Part shown: positions 22,314 through 53,002 of the stretch, in pieces
How positions within the stretch are numbered: position 1 is the stretch's first letter
Layout: the number at the start of each line of letters is the position of its first letter
From: Candidatus Udaeobacter sp.
GTDB taxonomy: Bacteria; Patescibacteriota; Patescibacteriia; Magasanikbacterales; GWA2-37-8
Length of the DNA: 64,000 bases
Assembly: GCA_035473115.1 (NCBI GenBank)
Contig: DATION010000004.1
Location: forward strand, 33,126-97,125
Reading direction: 5' to 3'
Notes under the pieces: model-generated
Database searches by the model: none
Seen by the model: only the letters and a program-made list of their open reading frames with translations
Told to the model about the DNA's origin: nothing
Made by a program: the position numbers and the translations under genes

Positions 22314-22543
22314 ATTCGAAATGAGTGAGGGGAATAATTAAATGTATTTAATTATTGCCGAACGAATGAGATTATATGGGCAAAGCCCATATAATATTAA
22401 ATCAAAGAATAATTACTTACTTTTTCATTGTTAGTATAACTATTTCTTATAAAAAATGTCAACAGTAACAGTAAATTTTCTTAAATTAATAACGCTCGGC
22501 CATCTTTTGGACAACCGAGCGAAACTACTCCTTACTAAATTAA

Positions 22544-23455
22544 TTACTGCTTATTCCAGTTCTCTTGGAGCTGCTGCCAGAGCCAACCGACCAGATCGGG
22601 CGCCCCAGCAATAAAGCCGATGCCACCCTCTTTAGTACGATTACTACGATTGTAACTCGGCAAATCCGGCTCCACAAGCGGAACAAGCAATCCACCACGG
22701 TAGTGGTAGTACTGGACTTTACCTCCAGCCGCTTCGATAATTGTGGCCGACGCCCAATCCCACGGCCACTGATGGGGCTGAACAATAGCTTCTGCCCGAC
22801 CAGCGGCGACCATAGCTACGCCAAGCCCACAGGATCCGGCGACAACTGCCGTCTCCACAGTCTTCGCGACCTCATGTTGAAACTTCTGGAAATGAGGCCT
22901 CTTGAGCACATCCACTCCATATAGAACAGTGGACTTCTCTACTGGACGTTCCACCACCCTAGCTGGCTGAGCAGTATGATATGACCCATCCGTCACAAAC
23001 ACACCTTGCCCCTTCTCACCAAAAACCAAAAACCCATTTCGGATATCAGGAGCAAAAATAGCTCCACCCTGATGCTGTCCGTCCTGTATCCAATTCGCAA
23101 CAACACTCCAATCGAAGCGATTGCGATAAGCACCGGCAGTTCCATCCACCGCATCAAGAACGAATACGGTCCCTGGCTGCTTGATCTGACCGAGATTGCC
23201 ATTCAGGATCAGGTCAGGCCCCTGGCATTCCTCTTCGGCAAGAAAAAACGCGCCTGGAAAATTAGAACGGAGTTCGGAAAGAAGCATAGCCTGACTATTC
23301 CCATCAGCCTCAGTACTAATCGAATGATGACTTCCGCCAGGCTCACCGTCTTTTACCTTAGCATTAACACCTTGAGCCAAAACCTCTTTGACCATAGCCC
23401 CTGCCATAGCAACTGCGGTAGAAAGAACATGCACCTGACGAGAAAAGTTTGACAT
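22544..23455 (-). CDS. inositol monophosphatase/CysQ-family phosphatase (compositionally foreign, high-GC gene)
   Basis: 303 aa. FVLDAVDGT (DPIDGT-type) and WDWASATIIEAAGG (WDxAAG-type) motifs. Local GC is roughly 52% against about 35% in the flanks. It has its own SD (AAGGAG) and a TTGACT promoter. Confidence 0.6.
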   Translation of the reverse strand: MSNFSRQVHVLSTAVAMAGAMVKEVLAQGVNAKVKDGEPGGSHHSISTEADGNSQAMLLSELRSNFPGAFFLAEEECQGPDLILNGNLGQIKQPGTVFVLDAVDGTAGAYRNRFDWSVVANWIQDGQHQGGAIFAPDIRNGFLVFGEKGQGVFVTDGSYHTAQPARVVERPVEKSTVLYGVDVLKRPHFQKFQHEVAKTVETAVVAGSCGLGVAMVAAGRAEAIVQPHQWPWDWASATIIEAAGGKVQYYHYRGGLLVPLVEPDLPSYNRSNRTKEGGIGFIAGAPDLVGWLWQQLQENWNKQ

Positions 23456-23640
23456 GACTTGCTCCTTTAGTTGTTGATCGTGGAATTAACTCACTCCATC
23501 ACTATTCCAAAAATTTTTCGAAATATTAACAGTGCGAGTGTTGACCAGAACCAACTTGATATGGCTGAAAAACTTCTTTCTACTTTATCTTCCGACCAGC
23601 ATGGGTCAGAAAGACATGATAACTTATAACAAATAAACAA

Positions 23641-23672
23641 AAAAGTCAAGGATACATCCTCGACTTTTTTGT
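23641..23672. terminator. hairpin terminator after the oxidoreductase gene (overlaps the -35 region of the islet-1 promoter)
   Basis: AAAAAAGTCAAGGATACATCCTCGACTTTTTT. An imperfect 9-bp stem flanked by an A-run and a T-run. Confidence 0.5.
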
Positions 23673-23681
23673 TTAGCAAAA

Positions 23682-24719
23682 TTAAAAAGTAATTATTTTT
23701 TTCTTTTTAGACGAAGCGTATAAATCTTCTACTAATTTATTTGCCATCATTCCATCATAGCCATTGCCAATTGGTTCAGTTTTACTAACTATAGCTTGAC
23801 GAAAATTTTTCCATTCTTCTTGCCAAGAAATATCTACATCATACAAAAATTCTTGCTCAACCGGACGGACTCCCAGTTTTTTTCTCCGGCCAATTATTAA
23901 TTTTTCTTGGCCATAACTGCCGCCTTTTCCTTCAATGTTAAGATAGCCCTTTTTGCCAAAAACGTCAATTACAAATTTATTTCTCCATTGAGTGGCGCTC
24001 ACATGCATCTGCGCTACCTGGCCGCTTTTTGCCCGCAAAGTACAGAAAGCGTTATCTTCTAGTTTTGATTTATTCCAAAACATATTTTCGCAAAAAGCTG
24101 CGCCTTCTTTGAATTCACCCAAAAACCAGCGAAATAAATCCAGCATATGCACTCCCTGATCTAATAATTCTCCGCCGCCGGATAATTTTTTGTTCATCCG
24201 CCATTCCAGATCATAACCTTTTCTGGCACCGTGGCCATAAACAGCTCGCATATACATTAGCTCACCAATAGCGCCGCTTTTGACTAAATCGTGGGCCTTC
24301 TTGATCGCAGCGTGAAAACGGTGATTAAAACCAACTTTTAACACCACTTTATTTTTTCTGGCTGCCAGATAAACTTGCCTGGCCTCTTGATAATTAATTC
24401 CCAAAGGCTTTTCGCACAAAACATTTTTTTTATTGCGTATTGCTTCTAAACATAACCCAGCCGCCGCGCTATTGATAGTAGCGATAATTACCGTGTCTAT
24501 TTTTTTATTTTTAAAAATTTCTTCACTGCTACTAGCAACGGAAGCGCCATATTCTTTGGCCAAAGCCAAACTTCTTTCCGGGCTAACATCAAAAACAGAG
24601 ACGAATTTGTCTTTTTTTAAATCTCGAATAACTCTCGCTCTTTTTGCGCCAATATACCCGGCACCGATAATCCCGACATTCATATTATTTGGTAATTTCC
24701 TTAAAATATTTATTATCAA
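23682..24719 (-). CDS. Gfo/Idh/MocA-family NAD(P)-dependent sugar oxidoreductase
   Basis: VGIIGAGYIGAKRARVI Rossmann motif, EKPL motif and a C-terminal alpha/beta domain. Length is 345 aa. Confidence 0.7.
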   Translation of the reverse strand: MIINILRKLPNNMNVGIIGAGYIGAKRARVIRDLKKDKFVSVFDVSPERSLALAKEYGASVASSSEEIFKNKKIDTVIIATINSAAAGLCLEAIRNKKNVLCEKPLGINYQEARQVYLAARKNKVVLKVGFNHRFHAAIKKAHDLVKSGAIGELMYMRAVYGHGARKGYDLEWRMNKKLSGGGELLDQGVHMLDLFRWFLGEFKEGAAFCENMFWNKSKLEDNAFCTLRAKSGQVAQMHVSATQWRNKFVIDVFGKKGYLNIEGKGGSYGQEKLIIGRRKKLGVRPVEQEFLYDVDISWQEEWKNFRQAIVSKTEPIGNGYDGMMANKLVEDLYASSKKKKIITF

Positions 24720-33126: not shown

Positions 33127-34611
33127 TTATTCCAGCTTAAAATCCATTTTCCTTAATTTATAAAAAATATACAGCGGGTATGCCCAAACTAGCATCACAA
33201 ATAGCTGCTCAAACCATAACTCACCCACAGCATCGGTACCGCGAACATACCAATTGAAAAGCCATAGCGGATAAAAAACTAACGGTGATAAACTAAGCCA
33301 CACTAAAGCTCGGCCTAACAAAATATTGCGAGAACGTTCGTACACCAAAATTCCCAATGGAATTAACCAAGCCACATACCATGGCCAAAAAGATTTTTGC
33401 CAAAGAGATAAATATAGAAATAAGCCAAAAAATATCATCTGCAGATAACTTTCTGCAGTCATAGTATATTTTTTTAGCAGTATTAAAACTATTTTTTTTA
33501 GATATGGCCAAAATAAATAAATCATTAGTGCCAGCAAACCTCCTTGGACCAAACGGGTCAAAAACCAATGCGCCCTATCATGGAGCAACCAAACAAACAG
33601 CGGTTTTAGAGAATAATAAATAACAGCAAACACGCTGTCCGCCGCCCATTTTGACTGCATAGCAATCAGATCAAATACTTTGAATCCCTGCCACAAGCCA
33701 TGCCAATAAAATATAGTTATTGCAATACTAAGCAAACTGCCAACCAAAGCCTGGCTTAACTGTTTTTTCCAAGTAAGAACTGTAGTTTCTTGCCACCACC
33801 AAACCACAAAAAATGGCGCTACTAAAATAGGCAAAAACTTCACCCAAACACCAATTACCAGCAAAGGAATAACTAACCACCATTTACTGCGCCAGGCCGC
33901 CCAAATAGCCAAAAGTACGCACAGAAGCCAGGCAACATCAAAATGACCATTAACTAAAACTTCAAACAGTAATAATGGCTGCAGAATCCAAAAAGATAAA
34001 AATACCGAACGAGAAATTTTTATTTCTTGAATCTCCAGCAAACGATACACAACCCAGCCAACTAAAATTAAAATTGCGGTTAAAAATAATTTCCACAGCA
34101 CAATAAAAACCGCCGGATTATCAAAACTAATTTTATATAAATCTTTAAAAATAACAGCCATGATCGGCCCATAAGAAAACCCTACCACCGGTTCAACTCT
34201 AACCGGACTGACAAAATCACGCTTAAATATCCATTCGTCCACAAAAGGGTTCAAATTATTTTGCATGGCTTTGCCGGCAGAAAAATAATAGCTGGTATCA
34301 CTTGAGCCGAACGGAACTGTAATAATCGCCAAAAAAACAGAAATTCCGGCCAGTACCAGCCAAGATTTTTTTAATAATTCTGCTTGATGATTTTTCCATA
34401 AAAAATAACCGGAAACAATCAGACTAGCAATAAAAATAAATATCAAGCCAAATGATACTAACTTCAAGTTACCACTAAGCGGCGTGTGACAAAAAATCCA
34501 ACTGCTCATAAAAGCGCAGTTGATTTTAAAATAAGCAGAATAAAGCGCTGCTGAAAAAATTGCTACCAGCAGCCAACCGACTAAACCTGCATAGGATAAA
34601 AATTTGTTCAT
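33127..34611 (-). CDS. polytopic membrane protein, candidate GT-C glycosyltransferase or Wzy-like polymerase
   Basis: 494 aa with more than 12 TM helices and no soluble domain. It lies within the Wzx/ligase-containing cluster. Confidence 0.4.
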   Translation of the reverse strand: MNKFLSYAGLVGWLLVAIFSAALYSAYFKINCAFMSSWIFCHTPLSGNLKLVSFGLIFIFIASLIVSGYFLWKNHQAELLKKSWLVLAGISVFLAIITVPFGSSDTSYYFSAGKAMQNNLNPFVDEWIFKRDFVSPVRVEPVVGFSYGPIMAVIFKDLYKISFDNPAVFIVLWKLFLTAILILVGWVVYRLLEIQEIKISRSVFLSFWILQPLLLFEVLVNGHFDVAWLLCVLLAIWAAWRSKWWLVIPLLVIGVWVKFLPILVAPFFVVWWWQETTVLTWKKQLSQALVGSLLSIAITIFYWHGLWQGFKVFDLIAMQSKWAADSVFAVIYYSLKPLFVWLLHDRAHWFLTRLVQGGLLALMIYLFWPYLKKIVLILLKKYTMTAESYLQMIFFGLFLYLSLWQKSFWPWYVAWLIPLGILVYERSRNILLGRALVWLSLSPLVFYPLWLFNWYVRGTDAVGELWFEQLFVMLVWAYPLYIFYKLRKMDFKLE

Positions 34612-35958
34612 TTATTTGTATTGACCTAAAAATTCTTCAAAGCAAGCAACCATATATTCCATCATTTCTTTAGTCAAACCAGGATAAACACCAACCCAGA
34701 AGGTATTATTCATTACCAAATCGGCATTTTTAAGATCGCCAACCACTCGATAATCAATTTTATTATCTACAAAGTAAGGCTGCTTAATAATATTGCCGGC
34801 AAACAAATAACGAGTCGCTATCTGTTTGTCTTGCAAAAAACGCACCACCGTATCGCGATCAAACGGCGCGTCTTCTTGAACCGTCAACAGAAAACCAAAC
34901 CAGCTTGGCTCGGCATTATCCAGCCATTTTGGCAAAATAAAATAATCTTCAAACTTTTTTAAGCCATTATATAAAATATCAAAATTCTCTCGGCGTTTGG
35001 CCACAAAACTATCTAATTTATCCAACTGAGCCACGCCTAATGCAGCTTGAACATCGGTAGTTTTTAAATTATAGCCAATTTCCGAATAAATATATTTGTG
35101 ATCATAACCATATGGCAAATTTCCTAGCTGCCAACCAAAGCGCATACCGCAAGTATTATCACAACCGGATTTACACCAGCAATCTCGGCCCCAATCACGG
35201 AAAGAACGGATTATTTTTGCCAACATGCCGTCGTTGGTGAAAACAATTCCACCTTCACCTAAAGTAATATGGTGCGCCGGATAAAAACTGCAGGTAGCAA
35301 TATGGCCAAATGTGCCAGTATGCTTGCCATTATAAATTGAGCCCAAAGCATCACAGTTGTCTTCGATTAGCCACAGATTATGCTCTTTACAAATTGCGGC
35401 AATAGCCTCTAAATCAAATGGATTACCCAAAGTATGAGCCAAAAATATGGCTCTAGTTTTTGGAGAAATAGCTTGTTTAATCTGCTCAACATTGGCATTA
35501 TAATAACCCAAGTCAACATCCACAAAAACCGGTACCAATTTATTTTGAATAATCGGATTAACTGTGGTTGGAAAACTGGTCGCCACTGTAATTACTTCAT
35601 CGCCCGGATTTAATTTCTTGGCGCCTAATTTAGAAGAAGTAAGGGCTGTCATCGCCAGCAAATTGGCAGACGAACCCGAATTTACCAAAATCCCCTGTTT
35701 TACTCCCAGCCAATAAGCTAATTTGCTTTCAAATTCTTCAGTAAAATGACCTTCAGTCCACCAACCTTCCAAAACTGCATCTACCATACTGAGCATCTCT
35801 TTTTCATCAAAAACTTTTCCAGATACTGGCACAGATGACTGGCCGGGAACAAATGATTTTGCTGGAAATTTTTTGCTATATTCGGCTTGAATTTGCTGGC
35901 GCAAGGAGTCTTCCATACTTGATAATAAATGAAAATAATTAACTTTTACATTTACCAT
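34612..35958 (-). CDS. rfbH: CDP-4-keto-6-deoxy-D-glucose 3-dehydratase (E1, PLP/PMP-dependent, DegT/RfbH family)
   Basis: A long identity-like block to RfbH/DdhC: SFRDWGRDCWCKSGCDNTCGMRFGWQLGNLPYGYDHKYIYSEIGYNLKTTDVQAALG. The N-terminal VPVSGKVFDEKE and LVNSGSSANLLAMTALTS also match. The true start may be the Met 14 codons downstream. Confidence 0.85.
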   Translation of the reverse strand: MVNVKVNYFHLLSSMEDSLRQQIQAEYSKKFPAKSFVPGQSSVPVSGKVFDEKEMLSMVDAVLEGWWTEGHFTEEFESKLAYWLGVKQGILVNSGSSANLLAMTALTSSKLGAKKLNPGDEVITVATSFPTTVNPIIQNKLVPVFVDVDLGYYNANVEQIKQAISPKTRAIFLAHTLGNPFDLEAIAAICKEHNLWLIEDNCDALGSIYNGKHTGTFGHIATCSFYPAHHITLGEGGIVFTNDGMLAKIIRSFRDWGRDCWCKSGCDNTCGMRFGWQLGNLPYGYDHKYIYSEIGYNLKTTDVQAALGVAQLDKLDSFVAKRRENFDILYNGLKKFEDYFILPKWLDNAEPSWFGFLLTVQEDAPFDRDTVVRFLQDKQIATRYLFAGNIIKQPYFVDNKIDYRVVGDLKNADLVMNNTFWVGVYPGLTKEMMEYMVACFEEFLGQYK

Positions 35959-36117
35959 TTTACCAATTATTTTTTAAAAAAGCAACCTTTTATGTATAGT
36001 GAAAACCCCTATAAAATACAACACGCCCCGCCATTCTCATCCACGTTGGACTTGACAGCGGAGCGTTCTGACTCCTTGTTGAGACCCCATTTTCCATCAG
36101 GGGTAGAGCGCTATCTT

Positions 36118-36714
36118 TCAGCGCCAGGTGGAGAGCAAGGCCTTGTAGGCCTTGGGGATGATCAGGTCGCGGTGGAGATCCACCGTGACCTCGGGCAGGT
36201 GGTCCACGGGGAACCAGCCATGCCGATCGTCGACCCGCGGATCACTCTTGAGAGCGATCAGGAAGATCATGGAGTGCACCGTACCGCGGGCCTCCGACGT
36301 GATCTCCTTGCCGACCAGAGTGAATCCGGAGATCTCGGCTCCGAACTCCTTTCCGAGTCTGTTGGCGACATGCTGGTCCTGCTCGCCATGGCGGTAGAGC
36401 GAACCAGGCGCATGCCACTCGCCCGGATAGGCGGTATCATCTGGGGCTCGCCGCCGCAGATAGACCTCTGCAGTGCCACTCTTGCCCTTGCGGAAGAGCA
36501 TGGCCTCGAAGGCCGACGTGGGCCAAAGCCTCATCGTTGAGTCGCAAAACTTCGTTCCCACCGGCCTGGTGTTGTCGATCCGATCCATCTGACCAGCGAT
36601 CATCTCCCTGAAACCATCGCTGTTGGGATCCATCCGACCGAGCAAACCAGCGACCAGCGCCTTGAACTGATCGCTCTGGGGATTGAGATTCTCTGGGACT
36701 ACCAATCCGTTCAT
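36118..36714 (-). CDS. hypothetical protein on a second high-GC islet (weak Nudix-like GxWxxPG...GE...R...E.G pattern)
   Basis: 198 aa. GC is roughly 55% over about 36020-36720. A GGAGGG SD sits 7 nt before the ATG. PGEWHAPGSLYRHGEQDQHVANRLGKEFGAE loosely fits a Nudix box. Confidence 0.35.
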   Translation of the reverse strand: MNGLVVPENLNPQSDQFKALVAGLLGRMDPNSDGFREMIAGQMDRIDNTRPVGTKFCDSTMRLWPTSAFEAMLFRKGKSGTAEVYLRRRAPDDTAYPGEWHAPGSLYRHGEQDQHVANRLGKEFGAEISGFTLVGKEITSEARGTVHSMIFLIALKSDPRVDDRHGWFPVDHLPEVTVDLHRDLIIPKAYKALLSTWR

Positions 36715-36858
36715 TTTTCACCCTCCCGTTAATTGTTCTGGTTCGCTTCTCGACTCTTACTGGGAGTCAAAGAAGACATATTAAATTATCATAAATTAAC
36801 AAAAAAGTCAAGGTTTCCCCTGACTTTTTCGCTAATGATACGAATTATTATTTTAACT

Positions 36859-37815
36859 CTAAAAATTCACTCTTTCTTTTTCAATTACTAGCGGCCGCTC
36901 GCGCACCTGGGTATAAATTGCGCCAATATATTCGCCCAAAATACCGATAAAAAATAACTGGATAGAAGAAAATAAAAATATGCCGATAGTTACCGGTGCC
37001 AGTCCGGCTTCAAACCTATCCCAAAAAAGAAGTTTGTAAACTAAATAAACTATTCCGACTATAAAACTAATAACCGACATACCAAAACCAATAAAGCTGG
37101 CCAGACGCAAAGGAATCTTGGAATGGTTCACAAACCCCAACATGGCCAAATCATAAAGGGAATAAAAATTATTACTGGTCTTGCCCCTTTTTCTGGCCGG
37201 CTGCACATAACTAATCTCGGCCCGATTAAAACCGACTTCGGTAATTAGGCCGCGGAAATATGGATACGGGTCTTTCAACGTTCGCAATACAGCAATAAAC
37301 TTTTGATCATATAGTCCAAAACCGGTAAAATTTTTAATCTGTTCAATATCTGATAATTTTTTCATCAGATCGTAATAAACTTTGCGAATCGCAAACATTA
37401 AAGGATTTTCTTCACTCTGATTTTTTACTCCCACCACAATCGATTTTCCCTCTTCCCATTTTTGCAAAAATTCTTTGATCATTACTGGCGGATCCTGCAA
37501 ATCCGACGCCATCAGTATCACCGCGTCGCCATAGGCTTGCTGCAGGGCATAATATGGCGAACGAATATGGCCAAAATTTTTAATGTTAACGATAATTTTT
37601 ACATTGTAGTCGGCTGCGGCTAGTTTTTTTAAAATTTCCACCGTATTATCTTGCGAAGCATTATCAATAAAAATATGTTCATAACGATACTGCGGCAAGT
37701 CAGCAAAAACTGCCTTTACTTGTTTATAAAGTTCTTCCACGTTTAATTCTTCGTTATAGCAAGGAGTAACAACGCTGATTAGTTTTTTATCTGACATATA
37801 AATTTTAGTTGTCAT
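36859..37815 (-). CDS. family 2 glycosyltransferase, GtrB/ArnC-like polyprenyl-phosphate sugar transferase with C-terminal TM helices
   Basis: LISVVTPCYNEELNVEELYKQV...IFIDNASQDNT...MASDLQDP followed by two C-terminal TM segments. Length is 318 aa. Confidence 0.7.
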   Translation of the reverse strand: MTTKIYMSDKKLISVVTPCYNEELNVEELYKQVKAVFADLPQYRYEHIFIDNASQDNTVEILKKLAAADYNVKIIVNIKNFGHIRSPYYALQQAYGDAVILMASDLQDPPVMIKEFLQKWEEGKSIVVGVKNQSEENPLMFAIRKVYYDLMKKLSDIEQIKNFTGFGLYDQKFIAVLRTLKDPYPYFRGLITEVGFNRAEISYVQPARKRGKTSNNFYSLYDLAMLGFVNHSKIPLRLASFIGFGMSVISFIVGIVYLVYKLLFWDRFEAGLAPVTIGIFLFSSIQLFFIGILGEYIGAIYTQVRERPLVIEKERVNF

Positions 37816-37916
37816 CTCGAGCGTAGTCGAGAGATCCCTTATACTTGGTTATAGCAAATATTACGTTTAAGGGATTCCTCCACTCGCCTTAAGGCTCGGT
37901 CGGAATGACGGTTTAG

Positions 37917-38795
37917 TTATTCTTCAATTAAATTCTTCTGATCTAAACTTGGCAAAACTTGCTTATAGTATGTTACTAATTTATCAATAGCTATGTCAAT
38001 TGACGTATAGGCAAAACCAGGAATTATATTCTGTAAGCGAGAGATATCGCAAGAATATTCTTTGGCCAAACCGCTATTAGCAATTAAAACCGGTACTTTA
38101 TAACCAATTTTTTCTAAAACCTTATCAGCTATAGTTTGCAGATCAATTGCTTCTCCCCGACCAATATTAATAAAAATTTCTTTTGGCTGCTGTAAAATAA
38201 TTTTTTCTAAAATTTGCACAAAATCATCTATAAACAGATAATCAAAATTTACATTCTGCCGCATCGTAATCGGTTTATGAAGCAAGGCCCGGCAAATAGC
38301 GTTGGAAATAAATCTAATTTCATAGTCTTCGTACTTACCAAAAACGGCAAACAACCGCAGATGGGTAATATAATCTACTTTGGCCGCATATTGGGCGCAA
38401 ACATATTTATACAATCCATATTCATCTTTGGGAACATGCTTATCAAAATCAGTTTCTTTCACATTTACTAACGACTCTTGTTTATCATATTCCGCTCCGG
38501 AACCAAGTGTAATCATCCGTTTAAAAAATGGTTTGGCGCGAACCAAATTAAAAAACATTTTTAAATTAATATGAGTAATACCAAAAACATGCTGCTGTTT
38601 GCGCGTACCGCCGATATTGGCTGCGTGCACCACAACATCTACGGGATTTTTCTGCAAAAAATTATATACCGCTTCACTGTCGGTCAAATCTAATTCAGAA
38701 TGGGTCGGTGCAATAATCTCAAACTTGTCTCCAAGCTGTTCTTTTATGTTGCGGCCGATAAATCCGTTACCGCCGGTTAAAAATATCTTAAGCAT
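37917..38795 (-). CDS. NAD(P)-dependent sugar epimerase/reductase (SDR; RfbS/YerF-like candidate reductase)
   Basis: MLKIFLTGGNGFIGRNIKEQL and YGLYK (YxxxK). Length is 292 aa. It lies immediately downstream of the ThDP enzyme. Confidence 0.55.
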   Translation of the reverse strand: MLKIFLTGGNGFIGRNIKEQLGDKFEIIAPTHSELDLTDSEAVYNFLQKNPVDVVVHAANIGGTRKQQHVFGITHINLKMFFNLVRAKPFFKRMITLGSGAEYDKQESLVNVKETDFDKHVPKDEYGLYKYVCAQYAAKVDYITHLRLFAVFGKYEDYEIRFISNAICRALLHKPITMRQNVNFDYLFIDDFVQILEKIILQQPKEIFINIGRGEAIDLQTIADKVLEKIGYKVPVLIANSGLAKEYSCDISRLQNIIPGFAYTSIDIAIDKLVTYYKQVLPSLDQKNLIEE

Positions 38796-38796
38796 A

Positions 38797-40611
38797 TTAT
38801 TGTTTCTTAGGCGGTGTTTTGACTATCATATTTTCGTTCAATTCTTCTTGACTCAAGAACGGAAACATATTTTCATAAGGATTAGAAATCATTTTACCAT
38901 CCGGACCTTTTTCCGAAGTTACTCGCGGAATCAGCAATTGCCATTCCGGAGTCATCACATCACAAATTACCGGACCGTCATAATCCAAAACTTCTTTTAT
39001 TTTAGCATCAACTTCATCTACCGAAGAAATGCGTACACCTTTGATGCCATATACTTCGGCCAACTTAACAGAATCCGGACACCACACGCCAGACGCCGGA
39101 CTTTCGCCAATCATCCGACCTTCAAAAAAATTACGCTGCGTATGACGCATTAACAAGTAACCGTTATTATTAAAGATAAAAATTTTTAACGGCAAATTAT
39201 TTATTTTGACTGTGGCGAGTTCCTGTAAATTCATCTGCAAACTGCCGTCGCCGGTAATAACAATTGTTGGCTTGCGGTCGGCGGCCACACAAGCGCCAAT
39301 GCCAGCTACCCAATAACCCATTGTCGAGATACCGCCGGTAGTCAGAAAACGCTGCTGTGGTTTTATTTTCCAAGTTTGAGCCGCCACATGAAAACAAGAT
39401 CCGGTATCAACCAAAATATTGGCACCAATTGGAGCCAACTCGCTTAACCGATCGGTAAAATAATAAGAATTGACCGGTTTTTCATCTTTATACGAAGGCA
39501 AAACAACCGGATATTTTTTCTTCCAATTCTGACAAATTGCCAGCCATTGCGGTCTTTCAATTTCTGATTTACTATCGGCATATTTAGCCAGTTCAACCAA
39601 AAATTGTTTGGCATCAGCCAAAACCGGCAAAACTATATTCAAATCCGGCTTATCTAATTCTTTCTGATCAATATCAATAATAATTTTTTCGGCATTACGG
39701 CCAAAATCTTTGACATTATAACCGGTAAGAGAAACTGTGAGACGAGAACCGATAGCAATAATCAAATCTGCGTTCTGCACGGCAAAATTAGCAGAGCGTT
39801 CACCGTAAGTTCCCGGCCGGCCAATATAAAGCGGATGATCACTAGTAATAATATCTAAACCTAAGCGAGACGTAAGCAGCGGAATTTTTATTTTTTTAAT
39901 AACATCTTCAAAAGCTGCTATACCACCCGACAACCTGACTCCTTGGCCAAAAATAAACAGGGGTCTTTCTGCTTTAGCGATCCGCTCATAAACAGCAACT
40001 ACTTTTTCTAATAACTCTTTTGATGGTTCAGCTGATTGTATTTCAGTTTTTTCGGTAAAAGAATAAGCATCAATAACTGATTGCGGCACTTCGCTGCGCT
40101 GCATATCAACCGGCACTTCAATCCAAACTGGACCGGGGCGACCGGTGGTAACTTGCCGCCAAACTTCGGCTAGATATTCACCGATCCGAGCCGGATCATC
40201 GACTGTGACAAAATATTTGGTTATGGGAGTAACCATCTTACGAATACTAATCCCCTGCACGCCAAATTGGCGAATATCGGTCTTTTCGGCATACTGCACT
40301 ATAGATAAATTTGATTGTCCGGAAATCACAATCATTGGTGATGAATCTACCCACGCGCCCACTACGCCATTTAAAGCGTTAACTGCTCCCGGTCCGGCAG
40401 TGACCATAGCTATCGCCGGCTTATTGGCTACCCTCCCATAAGCCTCAGCAGCCATAGTGGCAGCTTGCTCATGCAACGGACAGATATAATGAAAATTTTT
40501 ATTCTTGGCAACTGCATCATTTAAAAACATGGCATGTCCGCCGGTAATAGTGAACACTTCGGTTACGCCGCGCTCGCCAAAATATTTGAAAATAAAATCT
40601 GCAACATTCAT
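38797..40611 (-). CDS. thiamine-diphosphate-dependent enzyme of the acetolactate synthase large-subunit family (YerE-like candidate sugar C-branching enzyme)
   Basis: 604 aa. N-terminal TPP-enzyme Pyr domain (VTEVFTITGGHAMFLNDA...VTAGPGAVNALNGVVGAW) and C-terminal ThDP motif GDGSLQMNLQELATV...NNNGY. Confidence 0.7.
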   Translation of the reverse strand: MNVADFIFKYFGERGVTEVFTITGGHAMFLNDAVAKNKNFHYICPLHEQAATMAAEAYGRVANKPAIAMVTAGPGAVNALNGVVGAWVDSSPMIVISGQSNLSIVQYAEKTDIRQFGVQGISIRKMVTPITKYFVTVDDPARIGEYLAEVWRQVTTGRPGPVWIEVPVDMQRSEVPQSVIDAYSFTEKTEIQSAEPSKELLEKVVAVYERIAKAERPLFIFGQGVRLSGGIAAFEDVIKKIKIPLLTSRLGLDIITSDHPLYIGRPGTYGERSANFAVQNADLIIAIGSRLTVSLTGYNVKDFGRNAEKIIIDIDQKELDKPDLNIVLPVLADAKQFLVELAKYADSKSEIERPQWLAICQNWKKKYPVVLPSYKDEKPVNSYYFTDRLSELAPIGANILVDTGSCFHVAAQTWKIKPQQRFLTTGGISTMGYWVAGIGACVAADRKPTIVITGDGSLQMNLQELATVKINNLPLKIFIFNNNGYLLMRHTQRNFFEGRMIGESPASGVWCPDSVKLAEVYGIKGVRISSVDEVDAKIKEVLDYDGPVICDVMTPEWQLLIPRVTSEKGPDGKMISNPYENMFPFLSQEELNENMIVKTPPKKQ

Positions 40612-40623
40612 ATAATGAAAAAG

Positions 40624-41643
40624 TTATGATTCTTTTTTAAATTTGGCTAATTCCATGGCTACTTCGACCACTATATCTTCCTGACCGCCGACCACTCGAC
40701 GCTTGCCTAATTCCATAAAAATATCCCGCGGATCAACCTTAAATCTTTCGGCCGCGCGCTTTACGGGCAAAGTAAAAACAGAAAACACTCCGGCCAAGCC
40801 GCTAGCAATAGTTATTGAATCAATTTCTAACGGTTTTTTAATAAAACCGGCCACAATTTGATCGCTCACATCCATTAAAATATTTAAGTTAACTGGAATC
40901 TGATAACCCATTTTTTTAAGCAGAGCTAATAACACTTCAATTGGACAATTACCGGCTCCTGGCCCAAAACCGCGCAAAGTTCCATCAATTATGCTGGCGC
41001 CTACTTCTAAAGCCATCCAAGTATGAGCCACAGCCATGCCTAAATTATTATGAGCATGAAAGCCAACTGGCACAGCTAAATTTTCTACTAAATAACTAAT
41101 TGTTTCTTTGACCAAAGCTGGAGTGGAAGCGCCGGCTGAATCCATAATAATAATGCCTTGCGCGCCATAACTGACCATTTTCTTGGCTTCTTCTAGCAAT
41201 CGTTCTTTGGTTGTCATGTGGTACATCATCAAAACTCCGTAAACTTCTTTGCCCGCTTTGGCTACATAGCTTATGTATTGCTGGGTAACATCAGCTTCCG
41301 TGCAGTGCGAAGCCACACAAACCAAATCAACGCCAAGTTCTATGGCTGGGGCAAGATCGTTTTTAATTGTACCAAAACCGGGCAATAAAAAAATACCTAA
41401 TTTGGCCTGTTTTAATTGTTTGCGGGCCGTTGCCAGTAATTCCAAATCTGGAGTGGCCGAAATACCAACCTGCAAAGATGAAGCGCCGATGCCATTGCCG
41501 TGTCCGACAATAACTACATATTCTCCGCCTTTATCAATAGCGCGGCAATATTTTTCCACCTGATCAACAGTTAATTGGTGCGATATCGCATGCTGACCAT
41601 CACGCAGAGTGGAATCAAAAACCATTAAATCTTTCATAAACAA
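40624..41643 (-). CDS. 4-hydroxy-2-oxovalerate aldolase-like (DmpG/BphI family, HMGL-like TIM barrel)
   Basis: DSTLRDGQHAISHQLTVDQV aligns to the DmpG DVTLRDGSHAIRHQYTLDDV. GFHAHNNLGMAVAHT metal-binding block. Length is 339 aa. Confidence 0.7.
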   Translation of the reverse strand: MFMKDLMVFDSTLRDGQHAISHQLTVDQVEKYCRAIDKGGEYVVIVGHGNGIGASSLQVGISATPDLELLATARKQLKQAKLGIFLLPGFGTIKNDLAPAIELGVDLVCVASHCTEADVTQQYISYVAKAGKEVYGVLMMYHMTTKERLLEEAKKMVSYGAQGIIIMDSAGASTPALVKETISYLVENLAVPVGFHAHNNLGMAVAHTWMALEVGASIIDGTLRGFGPGAGNCPIEVLLALLKKMGYQIPVNLNILMDVSDQIVAGFIKKPLEIDSITIASGLAGVFSVFTLPVKRAAERFKVDPRDIFMELGKRRVVGGQEDIVVEVAMELAKFKKES

Positions 41644-41648
41644 CCAAT

Positions 41649-42524
41649 TTATTTATTTGCAATTTTTTTCTTGGCATATTCTTCCGCTACTCGAATGGCA
41701 GCGCAAGTAATAATATCTAAATTACCGGCATAAGCGGGAAGAAAATCACCGCGACCAATAACTTCAATAGTAATAGTGACTTTTCCATTTTCAGCTATTG
41801 GGCCAATAGCCAAACGATAGCCAGGTACATACTGCTGGATAGCGGCAGCTACTTCATTTATTTTTTTGGTTAGAGCTTCAATGTTCGGCTCGGGAATAAG
41901 GGCATAAAGCGTATTATGCATTAAAATCGGCGGTTCAACCGGATTGAGAATCAAAATGGCTTTGGCTTCGGGCACACCAGAAAATTTTTTTAAAGCATCA
42001 GTGGTTGTCTGAATATATTCTTCCAGATTTGCTCTAGTACCGGAGCCGGCCGATTTGGAAGCAATACTGCCGACAACTTCAATATATTTTGTTTCCGGAT
42101 GCACGTCCATTATTGCTTTGGCAATTGGAATCAGCGTCTGACCACCGCAAGTTACCAGATTAACATTAGCAGCTTCCAAAGCTTGATCTAAATTTATGGC
42201 CGGCACGCACATCAGACCGATTCTGGAAGGAGTAAGATCAATGGTAAATTTTTTTAAATTTTTTAAAATCACCGCATGCTCGGCATGATAGGCCGCGCTG
42301 GTAGTATCAAAAACAATTTCACAGCAATTTGGATTGTCGGTTATAAACTTGATGGAGTCAAATGAAGTTGGAACGCCCAAATCCTTTGCTCGGCTAATTC
42401 CTTCGGAATCTTTGTTTCTGCCGGTAAAAATGCCGCACTCCAATATTTCGGAACGATTTACTTTATATAATAAATCACTGCCAATATTTCCAGTACCAAT
42501 TATACCTACCTTAACTTTAGTCAT
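41649..42524 (-). CDS. acetaldehyde dehydrogenase (acylating), DmpF/MhpF family
   Basis: MTKVKVGIIGTGNIGSDLLYKV, NLVTCGGQTLIP (catalytic Cys) and SKSAGSGTRANLEEY all match DmpF closely. Length is 291 aa. Confidence 0.8.
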   Translation of the reverse strand: MTKVKVGIIGTGNIGSDLLYKVNRSEILECGIFTGRNKDSEGISRAKDLGVPTSFDSIKFITDNPNCCEIVFDTTSAAYHAEHAVILKNLKKFTIDLTPSRIGLMCVPAINLDQALEAANVNLVTCGGQTLIPIAKAIMDVHPETKYIEVVGSIASKSAGSGTRANLEEYIQTTTDALKKFSGVPEAKAILILNPVEPPILMHNTLYALIPEPNIEALTKKINEVAAAIQQYVPGYRLAIGPIAENGKVTITIEVIGRGDFLPAYAGNLDIITCAAIRVAEEYAKKKIANK

Positions 42525-42545
42525 AGCTTATAACGGTAATCAATC

Positions 42546-43502
42546 TTATAAGATCTCTTTATACCAAGCCAAAGTCTCTAAAACTCCTCGCTTTAAACTA
42601 TACTTTGATTTCCAGCCAAGAATTTTTTCCGCTTTAGAAAAATTTAAACTCTGTTTTAGAATTTCATTTTTTTGATTGTTTACTATTTTATATTCAACTT
42701 TTTTACCGGCTATTTTAGAAACTTCTTTTATTAGTTCCAAAACTGAAAAATTAAATCCGGAACTAAAATTAAAGGCCTCGCCTTTGGCCTTGTCCATCTG
42801 CTCGGCCAAACAGATATATCCGTCCACCACATCTTTTACATAAACATAATCACGAGTAAACGTGCCGTCACTTCTTAGTTCTAAAACTTCATTCTTTATT
42901 ATCGCTTTCATGATACCCGGAATAATCCGATTAAAATTTAAATCTCCCGGACCAAAAATATTTCCGAAGCGAGAAATTGTTACCGGTAAATTATATGTTT
43001 TAGCATAAGTGAGTGCCAAAAGATCGGTGCAAGATTTGGAAACATCGTATGGATGGTCACCACGCAGCGGCTGAGTTTCTAACGCGGACAGACAATCTTT
43101 ACCATAGGCTTTGTCGCTTGAAGCGACAATAACTCCATTGATACGCGGCGACATTCTGGCAGCTTCCAAAATATGAAGCGTGCCCATAATGTTGGTGGCC
43201 AAAGTTTCATAAGGATTTACAAAAGCAGTCGCCACAATCGGCTGAGCGGCAATGTGAAATATAAAATTTACTTCGTATTTAGTAATAATATCGGCAATTC
43301 GTTCTTTATCCTTCAAATCACCGTTGGCCATTATTACTTTGCTGTCAAATTTATTTTTAAAAAAATAAGCTTGCGGATCACGGCTGCGCGACAAAACAAC
43401 GATACGTCCGGTATCCATTGATAAAAGACGTTCCACTAAATGAGAACCAACCAGTCCAGTGCCTCCGGTTACTAAGATATTTTTACCTTTAAGCTTAGAC
43501 AT
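42546..43502 (-). CDS. rfbG: CDP-glucose 4,6-dehydratase
   Basis: Start trimmed to the ATG at 43502, 10 nt after the rfbF stop. HIAAQPIV, SSDKAYG, HPYDVSKSCTDLL and RFGNIFGPGD blocks match RfbG/DdhB. Confidence 0.7.
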   Translation of the reverse strand: MSKLKGKNILVTGGTGLVGSHLVERLLSMDTGRIVVLSRSRDPQAYFFKNKFDSKVIMANGDLKDKERIADIITKYEVNFIFHIAAQPIVATAFVNPYETLATNIMGTLHILEAARMSPRINGVIVASSDKAYGKDCLSALETQPLRGDHPYDVSKSCTDLLALTYAKTYNLPVTISRFGNIFGPGDLNFNRIIPGIMKAIIKNEVLELRSDGTFTRDYVYVKDVVDGYICLAEQMDKAKGEAFNFSSGFNFSVLELIKEVSKIAGKKVEYKIVNNQKNEILKQSLNFSKAEKILGWKSKYSLKRGVLETLAWYKEIL

Positions 43503-43512
43503 GTAAAAAGAA

Positions 43513-44310
43513 TTAGTTTTCCCAAATTTTCCAAAATGGATCTTTCTGCCAATGCTCATTCATCTCTTCAACTTCTTTGTAAGTATCCATGCATTTCCAT
43601 TTTCCTTCATGCTTATAGACAGACAACTCGCCTTTTTCGGCCAGTGGGGCAAAAATTGATTCTACCATTGAATCCGGAGTCAGCAGATCCAAAGCTTCCG
43701 GTTTTAATACCATAAAGCCGCCATTGATAAAATCATTGGCTTGCTCTTCGTATCTGTTTTGGTTAGTTACTTTGTGCTGAAAAAAATCAACGGCTTTTTT
43801 GGTATTATGATCTATATTTAAAAAGCCAAAACGATGGGTTGGCCGCACAGCTGTAATGGTAGCGGCAGTATTTTGCTGTTTATGAAAATCAACCAGCTCT
43901 TTAACATTGATATCGGCCACGCCGTCCCCGTAAGTTATCATGAAATCTTCGTTGGGATTTAAATATTGCTTTAAGCGGCGAATGCGCTCGCCGGTTAAAC
44001 TATTTAAGCCGGTTTCCGCAAAAGTTATTTTAAAATCATCGCAATCATTGTTATGAAAAACTAAGCCATTATCTTTGGTACTCAAAGTAAAATCATTCAG
44101 CAGACTGCGCCAATTCAAAAAATATTCTTTGATCATGTTGCCTTTATAACCAAGAGCCAAAATAAAATCATTGTAGCCATAATGGGCATATATCTTCATG
44201 ATATGCCATAGAATTGGCTTGCCGCCAACTTCTACCAATGGTTTTGGTTTAAATTCAGTCTCTTCTTTCATGCGGGTACCAGTGCCGCCGCAGAGAATTA
44301 TTGTCTTCAT
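43513..44310 (-). CDS. rfbF: glucose-1-phosphate cytidylyltransferase
   Basis: MKTIILCGGTGTRMKEETEFKPKPLVEVGGKPILWHIMKIYAHYG...ITYGDGVADIN is a near-canonical RfbF/DdhA sequence. Length is 265 aa. Confidence 0.85.
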   Translation of the reverse strand: MKTIILCGGTGTRMKEETEFKPKPLVEVGGKPILWHIMKIYAHYGYNDFILALGYKGNMIKEYFLNWRSLLNDFTLSTKDNGLVFHNNDCDDFKITFAETGLNSLTGERIRRLKQYLNPNEDFMITYGDGVADINVKELVDFHKQQNTAATITAVRPTHRFGFLNIDHNTKKAVDFFQHKVTNQNRYEEQANDFINGGFMVLKPEALDLLTPDSMVESIFAPLAEKGELSVYKHEGKWKCMDTYKEVEEMNEHWQKDPFWKIWEN

Positions 44311-51703: not shown

Positions 51704-53002
51704 TTAATAATCCTTGAGTTTGCCAATAATTCCCATACGCTGAATTTTTTCCAGAGCTTTGGCTTCGATTTGGCGGATACGTTCGCGGGTAACATCAAAT
51801 TCCTGGCCAACTTCTTCCAAAGTGTGAGTCACGCCATCGGCCAAACCAAATCTCATTTCCAAAATTTTCTGTTCGCGCGGTGACAAATCTTTAATTGCTT
51901 CTTTGACGTAATCACGCAAAATCTGCAAACCAGCCACGCGGTCGGGCGGCATATTTTTGACATCTTCCACAAAATCTTGCAAAGAAGAATCATCGTCATC
52001 ATCGCCAACCGACATTTCCAAAGACACGGTATCCTGAGATATTTTTATAATATGATTTACTTTGGATACTTCTTCGCCCATTTCGGCAGCTAATTCTTCC
52101 GGAGTCGGATCACGGCCTAAGTCTTGCAATAATCGGCGCTGCACCTGCTGGAAACGATTAATTGTTTCCACCATATGCACGGGAATACGAATGGTGCGCG
52201 ACTGGTCGGCCAAAGCACGAGTAATCGCTTGGCGAATCCACCAAGTGGCGTAAGTGGAAAATTTATAACCGCGGCGGTAATCAAATTTTTTCACAGCTCT
52301 AAACAAACCGATGTTGCCTTCTTGGATTAAATCCAACAAAGAAAGGGATTTGCCCACGAATTTTTTGGCAATAGAAACTACCAACCGCAAGTTGGCTTCA
52401 ATCAATTTTCTGTCTGCTTCTTTGTCGCCGCGCTCTTTGCGTTTAGCTAGCGCCACTTCTTCATCGGCTTTGAGTAGCGGAATTCGGCCGATTTCTCGCA
52501 GATACATCTGAATTGGATCCGAAGAAATTTGCCCTAAATCAAAAGGAATATCCATATCCGGCTGCTTGCCCTGAAAACTTTTTAAAGTTTGTGAATGTTC
52601 TTCTTTACGGCCAAGCAAATTGCCGGTTGTCTCAACAATAGAGACACCGTTTTTATCAAGCAGATCTATAAAACCTTCGTATAGATCTAAATAACGCTCT
52701 GGTCGAGGAAAAACACCTTCAACTTCAATTTGAGTAATAAATCCGCGATTGCGGCCTTTGGCGATTATGGCCCAGATATCTTTAAGAGTTGGTTCAACAA
52801 CCACTTCTTCGGCTGCCATTAATTTTTTGGATTGCTTACTTTTTTTATTTACAAATATTTTATTTTTTCGAGACGGCTGGATGCGTTTAACTTTTTTTGG
52901 CTGAGATGATTTTTTTACCGCTTTACCCTTTTTTTGCTTACGCGTATGTTTAACGCGCAATGGCTTAGGGCGCTTCTTAATTGTCCCTTTCTTGGTCGGC
53001 AT
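51704..53002 (-). CDS. rpoD: RNA polymerase primary sigma factor (sigma-70 family) with lysine-rich basic N-terminal tail
   Basis: Regions 2-4 are conserved ([40 protein letters not shown]; C-terminal [21 protein letters not shown]). The N-terminal ~65 aa is K/R-rich. Confidence 0.85.

Follow-up and report, generated by a model that had tools for sequence, protein, structure and literature searches.

Within the 64,000-nucleotide window of contig DATION010000004.1 analysed here (all coordinates are positions of this window, and L-numbers such as L002 and L003 denote comparison loci that carry relatives), a GC-rich gene sits between two genes of normal GC, all three on the minus strand. The upstream flank (36859..37815) encodes a PgfS/ArnC-like polyprenyl-phosphate glycosyltransferase of family GT2, 85-92% identical in L002, L003, L005 and L022; the downstream flank (34612..35958) encodes RfbH, of the cytidine diphosphate (CDP)-6-deoxy-D-xylo-4-hexulose 3-dehydrase type (NF011936, 704 bits against a cut-off of 423). 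Between them, the coding sequence at 36118..36714 specifies a divergent Nudix-fold protein of 198 residues, as judged from the list of open reading frames (ORFs), its homologues, an AlphaFold2 (AF2) model and Foldseek, and it is preceded by the Shine-Dalgarno sequence GGAGGG (36721..36726), which a preliminary description had correctly recognized but placed 7 nt rather than 6 nt ahead of the ATG at 36714. That description regarded this gene, islet 2, and an IMPase-family gene, islet 1 (22544-23455), as two independently acquired foreign inserts; here we ask how far islet 2 deserves that name.

The compositional islet itself is not in doubt. About 700 bp holding one 198-aa minus-strand ORF stand out as first described, with GC nearer 0.60 (36030-36730) than the 55% given there: 300-nt windows across 36000-36749 have GC of 0.56-0.63, and those on either side 0.30-0.44. 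The coding sequence has GC 0.606 and GC at third codon positions (GC3) of 0.77, whereas the 49 other long ORFs of the window average 0.386 (sd 0.035) and 0.349, respectively, placing the Nudix gene some 6 sd away; the sole other GC outlier in the 64 kb is islet 1 (stretch ~22500-23500). The gene favours the rarest codons of its host (CTC, 44% against 3% in host genes; CCC, 50% against 7%; GTC, 58% against 9%; ATC, 100% against 15%), and its codon adaptation index (CAI)-like score is 0.405 against 0.723 ± 0.022. By GC and by this index, it therefore has the atypical composition expected of a recently acquired islet. Mis-assembly, offered earlier as a way in which the islet might be refuted, is excluded as far as the data allow, because an independent Logan assembly of run SRR9656165 matches 20.6 kb around the Nudix gene, spanning the two junctions, without a single mismatch. 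The overlapping antisense ORFs (35929-36540 on the plus strand, and others) lie in the frame that pairs antisense position 1 with sense position 3. Antisense stop codons need A at sense third positions and are rare because A is scarce there (6% in the window copy, 3-6% across the window copy and its orthologues); in agreement with their earlier treatment as GC artefacts, we reject these ORFs as genes and regard them as shadow ORFs of a low-A3 gene.

Beginning from GT2, the predicted transcription signals follow in close order on the minus strand. A terminator-like hairpin, AAAAAGTCAGGG-gaaa-CCTTGACTTTTT (36795..36836; inverted repeat I2, 19-nt arms, 84% complementary), is conserved with compensating changes in its inner stem (alignment A3), and its descending arm also supplies the -35 box of a predicted promoter at 36783..36811, consisting of -35 TTGACT (36806-36811), a 17-nt T-rich spacer ending in TGA, and -10 TAATTT (36783-36788). 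This promoter was not listed by a generic promoter scanner, and is conserved in L002, L005, L022, L018, L024, L023, L098, L025 and L003 as well as upstream of islet 1. Some 5 nt past the -10 box begins a leader hairpin, GTCTTCTTTGACTC-ccagtaa-GAGTCGAGAAGC (36745..36777), which would form the 5' end of the mRNA. At the other end, a 3' untranslated region (UTR; 36011..36117, GC ~0.5-0.58 in 50-nt windows) closes in a long terminator hairpin (GCTCCGC...GTCCAACGTGGA...GGCGGGGC) with a T-rich tail, whose plan is common to L005, L022, L003, L023 and L025. From its sequence, then, the unit is shown to have its own predicted consensus-type promoter overlapping the upstream terminator, a covarying leader hairpin and a conserved terminator.

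A second copy of this hairpin-promoter-leader module lies on the minus strand upstream of islet 1 (23585..23690; alignment A3), such that both islets are preceded by nearly identical sequences of ~90 nt: first a hairpin AAAAAGTC...GACTTTTT, which closes the gene upstream and supplies the -35 box as its descending arm; then TTGACTTTTTTGTTnATTTnTnATAAnTT, made up of the -35, a 17-nt spacer with TG-n at its end and the -10; and, after another ~5 nt, a hairpin whose upper stem varies above a lower stem of TCTTCTT/GGAAGA. Exactly 2 sites in the window (23611-23649 and 36773-36811) match the 39-nt pattern TTGACNTTTTTGTTN9TAN3TN5GTCTT, where 0.02 are expected. A relaxed version has 12 matches in 628 kb of non-redundant loci, 11 of which precede Nudix-family or IMPase-family units, while the twelfth (L098) heads a five-gene GC-rich unit that ends in an IMPase gene. 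Median downstream GC excess is +0.18 at module sites and +0.02 at 72 other TTGAC-N17-TAnWWT sites (p = 6e-5), an association that is partly built in, as the loci were chosen for their Nudix gene. Across 11 module sites GC rises from 0.18 in the spacer through 0.42-0.49 in the leader to a plateau near 0.6 from ~120 nt onward. When leaders were folded one by one and pairs counted from the loop outward, all 13 related leaders gave a 9-12 bp hairpin (dG -10 to -17 kcal/mol, mean z -3.0), with 5-6 different standard pair types at stem positions 4-6 from the loop. More distant GC-rich members have TTGACA-N17-TATAAT promoters of their own and TTCTTT-rich leaders, and several unenriched members have very short leaders or an operon position. 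Stem-loops at the 5' terminus are known to stabilize the ermC, aprE and ompA mRNAs; the present hairpin is like those leaders in being conserved, covarying and only a few nt past the predicted transcription start, and unlike them in its polypyrimidine/polypurine lower stem.

The slot between GT2 and RfbH is occupied by a Nudix gene in other genomes as well. The order GT2, Nudix, RfbH, GT-C is found in L002 (a 512-kb ENA scaffold), L003 (Parcubacteria, 495 kb), L005/L006 and L022, with Nudix proteins 56-68% identical to that of the window, and L009 and L018 have more distant homologues (35-45%) in the same slot. In the near-syntenic loci GT2 is 85-92%, RfbH 78-86% and the thiamine pyrophosphate (TPP) enzyme of the cluster 86-89% identical, and flank identity spans 69-92% over the six slot-sharing genomes. 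Absence from the site in related genomes, as expected for a recent islet, is thus not what we observe: the gene is present in L002, L003, L005, L022, L009 and L018, where it has GC of 0.53-0.65 and GC3 of 0.60-0.89 over flanks of 0.37-0.40 (an excess of 0.13-0.24). The junction comparison called for in the preliminary description therefore speaks against a foreign insert, the more so as there are neither repeats nor mobility genes (integrase, transposase) at the junctions, the sole junction repeat being the terminator hairpin; the nearest tRNAs are 12 kb off and the neighbours are all sugar-pathway genes. An integron cassette was likewise considered and rejected, because the unit carries a promoter of its own and lacks a GTTRRRY core after the 3' hairpin.

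Synonymous divergence gives an indication of how long the gene has been there. We compared identity at 4-fold degenerate sites within conserved codons with the identity expected from composition. For the flanks, the window has 0.34-0.53 against L002, L003, L005 and L022 (expected 0.25) and 0.28-0.38 against L009 and L018 (expected 0.26-0.27), so that the flank genes are near saturation; for Nudix, the closer pairs have 0.48-0.62 (expected 0.36-0.39). Between the window and L002, for example, the values are 0.52 against 0.36 expected for Nudix, and 0.46-0.49 against 0.25-0.26 for GT2 and RfbH. The Nudix excess is about that of the flanks, which makes the age of the gene in these lineages roughly that of its neighbours, and compared with the flanks we found no extra nucleotide-level constraint at its synonymous sites. 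By a rough two-state estimate for the window and L002 (normalised 4-fold identity ~0.25), neutral decay towards 0.35 would have removed about half of any GC3 excess in each lineage; because both are still at GC3 0.77-0.83 after such decay, the ancestor would have needed a GC3 above 1.0. In L009 and L018 GC3 remains 0.76-0.82 although the flanks are saturated.

The slot before RfbH may also hold more than one Nudix gene, with one to three tandem paralogues at L003 5206-7226, L018 5908-7234, L023, L025 and L095 1492-2627. In these tandem slots the copy adjoining RfbH has normal GC and an RfbH-type promoter, and it is a more upstream copy that combines high GC with the module promoter.

Searches for relatives covered one genome from each of 185,579 species, 241 million metagenome records and the viral sequences of IMG/VR. 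The genome scan, made with a motif, returned 14 loci, all in low-GC surroundings, from metagenome-assembled genomes (MAGs) named Parcubacteria, Magasanikbacteria, Saccharibacteria, Staskawiczbacteria or Patescibacteria, or auto-labelled 'uncultured Gammaproteobacteria' with low GC; the metagenome scan added 73 further loci. No relative was found on viral contigs in IMG/VR, for which reason a phage or mobile origin was rejected, and none in a high-GC context was found in any of the three collections: flank GC is 0.29-0.47 in all ~90 loci, none of which offers a compositionally matching donor. Of the 54 distinct members that have 3 kb or more of flank, 32 exceed that flank by more than 0.10 and 17 by less than 0.05, with no flank above 0.47. 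On a neighbour-joining tree the GC-rich members fall across most clades and a few clades are unenriched, including that of the 'second copy' directly before RfbH in L003, L018, L023 and L025. Within the enriched subset the regression of gene GC on flank GC has an offset of +0.18 and a slope of 0.98 (r = 0.53, p = 0.001; these statistics ignore phylogeny), a slope that a constant local push on top of host bias would give and that imports from a donor of fixed composition would not. GC at first codon positions is 0.59-0.68, against ~0.47-0.49 in most unenriched relatives, and GARP residues make up 0.30 rather than 0.21 and FYMINK residues 0.22 rather than 0.33; as first positions and amino-acid composition are shifted too, the change exceeds synonymous codon choice.

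Islet 1 behaves in much the same way. Orthologues of its IMPase gene, 45-72% identical, have GC of 0.70 in surroundings of 0.46 (L097, a Magasanikbacteria MAG; GC3 0.92), 0.58 in 0.45 (L098) and 0.59 in 0.46 (L099). Further GC-rich patches in the comparison loci correspond to three HAD phosphatases (one in L018 and two in L098), a TylF-type methyltransferase (L010), an EamA-like membrane protein and a DUF218 protein (L098) and several unassigned ORFs. Together these comparisons show that GC-richness is a long-standing property of the Nudix family and of other accessory cluster genes (the islet 1 IMPase, HAD phosphatases), and not the trace of a recent import. A link between the two islets had been suspected, and survives in altered form: the IMPase family is persistently GC-rich in other Patescibacteria and the two islets of the window share a near-identical promoter-leader module, such that islets 1 and 2 look like two units of one regulatory and compositional class rather than independent imports.

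Assignment of the protein to the Nudix fold, suspected from the weak pattern PGEWHAPG..GE..R...E.G (which is indeed present in the 198-aa sequence), is well supported. The AF2 model (predicted local distance difference test (pLDDT) 93.6, predicted template modelling score (pTM) 0.83) has an N-terminal three-helix extension (residues ~15-61) followed by a Nudix domain with the alpha/beta/alpha fold and the loop-helix-loop at the box that mark the clan; its Nudix helix comprises residues 113-124, with R119 and E123, and E111 is in the loop just before. Foldseek gave 509 matches in PDB at E <= 0.001, with probability 1.0 to dozens of Nudix structures, and all 50 of the 50 matches listed are Nudix-fold proteins, including CDP-Chase, BdRppH, MutT1, isopentenyl-diphosphate isomerase (IDI), GDP-mannose mannosyl hydrolase (GDPMH) and the Nudix domains of NrtR and AraR. 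The core is fitted by BdRppH (3EES) and MutT (3A6S) with TMt 0.76-0.80 (0.78 for BdRppH) and a root-mean-square deviation (rmsd) of 2.7-3.4 Å, and BdRppH is also the best PDB sequence match (E = 0.004). Against PDB sequences, 31 of 32 matches of the family profile are Nudix proteins; PF00293 is matched by 29 of 34 homologues at E <= 0.01 (best 4.4e-9), and the window protein itself has only a weak NCBIfam match, to isopentenyl-diphosphate isomerase, another protein of Nudix fold.

The box, by contrast with that of MutT/RppH-type pyrophosphohydrolases, which share the core fold, departs from the canonical GX5EX7REUXEEXGU. Across the family the consensus reads S-x5-E111-x7-R119-L-x-x-E123-F-G125, in which E111, R119, E123 and G125 remain, Ser stands in place of the first Gly and Leu in place of the Glu that follows Arg, and only one Glu of the EE pair survives. 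Because the box is reduced we do not file the protein as a canonical Nudix pyrophosphohydrolase; it is an uncharacterised, lineage-restricted Nudix variant, for which the fold assignment is right. Invariant across 34 sequences are E70, R89, Y96, W100, H101, E111, R119, E123, E141, R143 and H181, of which those beyond the box look like an active or metal site in the alignment. The family comprises 123 clusters (50% identity) at E < 1e-30 and 485 at E < 1e-10, and some representatives are fused tandem Nudix-Nudix proteins of 374-413 aa.

GDPMH (NudD/WcaH, Gmm; PDB 1RYA, 2I8T) is among the closest known parallels, being a Nudix-fold enzyme encoded in polysaccharide clusters and present among the Foldseek matches (rank 43). 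Its box, GX5EX7RLX2AEXGU, which we confirmed on PDB entry 1RYA, has the same kind of losses, with Leu after Arg and a single Glu kept. The family pattern RL-xxEFG is similar, with the spacing off by one residue (one fewer from R to G) and the register ambiguous; hhalign pairs R119, L120, E123 and G125 with the R, L, E and G of GDPMH at a probability of just 2.8% (E = 0.016), not a significant sequence relationship, and GDPMH did not appear in PDB sequence searches with this protein or the family profile. The present family further differs from it in the N-terminal helical extension of 60 residues and in its CDP rather than GDP context. CDP-Chase (CDP-choline pyrophosphatase of Bacillus cereus; PDB 3Q1P, 6NCI) is the best Foldseek match and the sole listed target aligned nearly end to end with the protein (193 columns, E 1.2e-8); at 14% identity and a full-length rmsd of 11 Å its domain arrangement is different. 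CDP-Chase is not known from sugar clusters. Its substrate is CDP-linked, going by a title cited in PMC3744803.

The genes around the islet form a cluster (window ~33127-44000; L001 2444-13588) that runs from a cytidylyltransferase through RfbH to GT-C and a flippase. Its members are a glucose-1-phosphate cytidylyltransferase (best model TIGR02623, under its cut-off), a CDP-glucose 4,6-dehydratase-like enzyme, an acetylating acetaldehyde dehydrogenase and a 4-hydroxy-2-oxovalerate aldolase (a DmpF/DmpG-type pair, both over cut-off), an acetolactate-synthase-like TPP enzyme, a reductase and, after RfbH, an MptA_B-family GT-C, a flippase and further transferases. The CDP-hexose/RfbH/TPP/DmpF-DmpG/GT2/GT-C gene set recurs in L002, L003 and L096. 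Against the background of 3,6-dideoxyhexose and yersiniose biosynthesis, the cluster looks from its gene content like a pathway of the yersiniose type for a CDP-linked dideoxyhexose that may be branched, with two-carbon units supplied in an unusual way; this pathway would feed a route of polyprenyl-phosphate-sugar and GT-C glycosylation. Where the sugar-synthesis genes of other loci share 80-90% identity with those of the window, GT-C reaches just 42-46%. Members of the Nudix family at quite unlike loci likewise lie in polysaccharide or nucleoside-diphosphate (NDP)-sugar clusters (glycosyltransferases, epimerases, methyltransferases, DegT-type enzymes). Judging from fold, conserved residues and context, the protein would bind, and would probably also hydrolyse, a nucleoside-diphosphate-linked compound of the pathway, for which a CDP-sugar or an intermediate is the likeliest candidate. 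Such hydrolysis would trim or clean the pool, a role also proposed for GDPMH in colanic-acid clusters. Among the Nudix activities on record is that of a CDP-glucose diphosphatase (PMC5389931).

In NCBI the protein is listed as a hypothetical protein of a 'Candidatus Udaeobacter sp.' MAG, a Verrucomicrobiota label. The primary sigma factor RpoD of the window (51704-53002) is 75-88% identical to proteins of the Parcubacteria, Magasanikbacteria and Patescibacteria group, and the genes that flank the islet in the glycan cluster share 86-91% identity with their counterparts in Parcubacteria group bacterium Gr01-1014_13. Probably the contig was binned or named wrongly, and we treated the window as Patescibacteria, also known as the candidate phyla radiation (CPR).

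We think it reasonably probable that islet 2 is an accessory gene that resides in a CDP-dideoxyhexose surface-glycan cluster of Patescibacteria and is transcribed separately, its GC being held by a local force. Such a locus-specific force would maintain GC against the AT pressure of the host genome. One candidate is selection on the transcript for stability or throttled translation: high GC might confer resistance to AU-directed RNases together with the leader hairpin, or rare codons might throttle translation of potentially wasteful phosphohydrolases. The other is GC-biased conversion in a cassette whose conserved ends would invite recombination. A broader proposal, which we are inclined to doubt slightly more than to believe, is that Patescibacteria glycan clusters contain a class of self-contained units (terminator-fused promoter, leader hairpin, GC-rich body, conserved terminator), enriched in phosphohydrolases (Nudix, IMPase, HAD), whose GC a locus-specific force would hold 0.1-0.25 above the genome over the long term, residents that would permanently look acquired.

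These conclusions must be tempered by several points that weigh against a resident gene with locally held GC or against its proposed function. The argument against amelioration leans on the rough two-state estimate, and the regression of gene GC on flank GC shares the disregard of phylogeny noted above. The Nudix proteins are 56-68% identical where the flanks are 78-92%, so orthology across loci is not clean; the order of relatedness also differs, with L003 among the two closest in the flanks and the most distant near-syntenic locus in Nudix. A parsimony count gave more strong-to-weak (S>W) than weak-to-strong (W>S) changes, from few polarised sites and by a method biased under skewed composition. 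Because the family as a whole folds no better as RNA than its synonymous shuffles, an explanation of the GC through structure is weakened. As to function, the substrate is deduced from the neighbourhood alone, two of the three REUxEE glutamates are gone, which makes catalysis uncertain, and NUDT21, with the similar box RLX2EIXG, is not a hydrolase (PMC5389931). The PF00293 search proposed in the preliminary description finds the homologues counted above and, for the window protein itself, no Pfam match even at E <= 10.

Compositional islets are classically explained by horizontal transfer followed by amelioration (Lawrence & Ochman 1997, as cited in PMC12455944), and in having an outlier of GC, codon and amino-acid usage confined to one gene with its own signals, islet 2 resembles such transfers, as it would after a recent, independent single-gene import from a GC-rich donor. 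We accord that interpretation only a very slight chance, given that at least six other genomes have the gene in this position, equally enriched in GC despite synonymous turnover, that its synonymous divergence is similar to that of the flanks, and that we found no junction repeat, mobility gene, or viral or high-GC-context relative. A subtler version, in which the slot is repeatedly refilled from an unsampled GC-rich pool by way of the conserved promoter-leader and terminator ends or the flanking genes, has several observations in its favour: the far greater divergence of Nudix than of its flanks and the disagreement of their trees, the two unrelated genes with similar 5' modules and similar terminators, the variation of the slot from 1 to 3 copies, and the mosaic, recombined nature of the cluster (L005 vs L022 4-fold identity is 0.71 for GT2, 0.62 for Nudix and GT-C and 0.39 for RfbH). 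It would, however, require a donor pool that was not seen in the species genomes, metagenome records or IMG/VR; tracking of host GC with a slope of ~1 is unexpected from a pool of fixed composition, and synonymous divergence matches that of the flanks in most pairs, for which reasons we give recurrent replacement a small chance.

Two further alternatives concern the product rather than the history of the gene. A modest chance attaches to a non-catalytic Nudix-fold binder, whether a ligand sensor or an RNA binder like NUDT21/CFIm25, NrtR or AraR: RLxxEFG resembles the NUDT21 box RLx2EIxG (PMC5389931), the Nudix domains of NrtR and AraR are among the fold matches, and the window protein lacks E121, present in many relatives. 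Yet E111, R119, E123, E70, E141, H101 and H181 are invariant over the 34 sequences, as would befit a metal or active site, there is no DNA-binding domain, and GDPMH is catalytic despite a box with the same two losses, the GDP-sugar glycosyl hydrolases with box RLX2AEXGU being active through a different mechanism (PMC5389931). That the GC-rich stretch is instead a structured RNA gene or an overlapping antisense gene, with the 198-aa ORF incidental, we find barely credible. The window copy does fold better than synonymous-codon shuffles (z = -6.0) and a 203-aa antisense ORF exists, but six orthologues have z of only -2.0 to +1.6 (three flank controls, -0.8 to -2.2), the protein is conserved with a confident fold and GC3 > GC1 > GC2 periodicity, and a gene so poor in A3 would be expected to leave such an antisense frame open. 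Excess folding being restricted to the window copy and not a family property, conserved structured RNA was rejected as the cause of the high GC. Rfam 15 has only chance-level matches in the islet or leader (E 0.11-0.75), and over the whole window three tRNAs and nothing else.

If the gene is indeed a resident, composition-based detection of transfer would call both it and islet 1 foreign where the comparative data say they are old residents. Should a local force be able to keep a gene for so long at 20 GC points above an AT-rich genome, neither GC-based island calling nor amelioration clocks would be reliable in these lineages, and the force would offer a new handle on bacterial base composition, through selection or biased conversion. 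The surprising part is that two unrelated genes in one window have GC-rich counterparts elsewhere (for Nudix, in the same slot) and the same module ahead of both, a concrete regulatory element. A literature search found no description of persistent GC-rich genes in Patescibacteria, nor are they mentioned in PMC12455944. The Nudix subfamily, uncharacterised and restricted to Patescibacteria, appears tied to CDP-dideoxyhexose synthesis and polyprenyl-phosphate glycosylation. Surface chemistry is thought to mediate host attachment in Patescibacteria.

Some features are particular to the window copy or its neighbours. Inside the window copy a 45-nt direct repeat (GATCCATCYGACC twice; 36582-36639) duplicates ~15 N-terminal residues that orthologues lack, and a 20-nt long-range inverted repeat (36242-36261 / 36667-36686) is also present. 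Clustering of GATC (Dam) sites in the Nudix gene was examined and rejected, as codon and amino-acid usage account for the 13 sites in 597 nt (10.6 ± 1.3 in synonymous shuffles; pooled z 1.9). RfbH has a promoter of its own, TTGCTT-N-TGGTAAAAT at 35957-35985, that overlaps its first ATG (35958) and is conserved ahead of RfbH in L002, L005, L022 and L009. Orthologues start MEDSL..., and the true RfbH start is probably the ATG at 35916, which would make the annotated N-terminus 14 residues too long.

A single module promoter in L098 (1491-5131) heads five genes that are rich in GC (0.56-0.60 vs 0.44) and appear to be one unit, encoding an EamA-like protein, two GmhB-like HAD phosphatases, a DUF218 protein and the IMPase; the gene caller placed opposite-strand shadow ORFs at 1556-2332 and 2444-2635. 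The 5' UTR of the islet 1 IMPase gene (23480-23560, minus strand) contains a second element, CACTGTTAATATTTCGAAAAATTTTTGGAATAGTGATGGAG, resembling the intergenic repeat ..CCCTCACTCTATCAGTGTTCCGAAAAATTTTCGGAATAGCGATAGGGGGG that occurs three times in the L098 GC-rich operon (~2660-2735, 3290-3370 and 4120-4200). A hairpin similar to the CACTGTTAATATTTCGAAAAATTTTTGGAATAGTGATGGAG element precedes the IMPase gene of L097, and this element may be an intercistronic RNA element.

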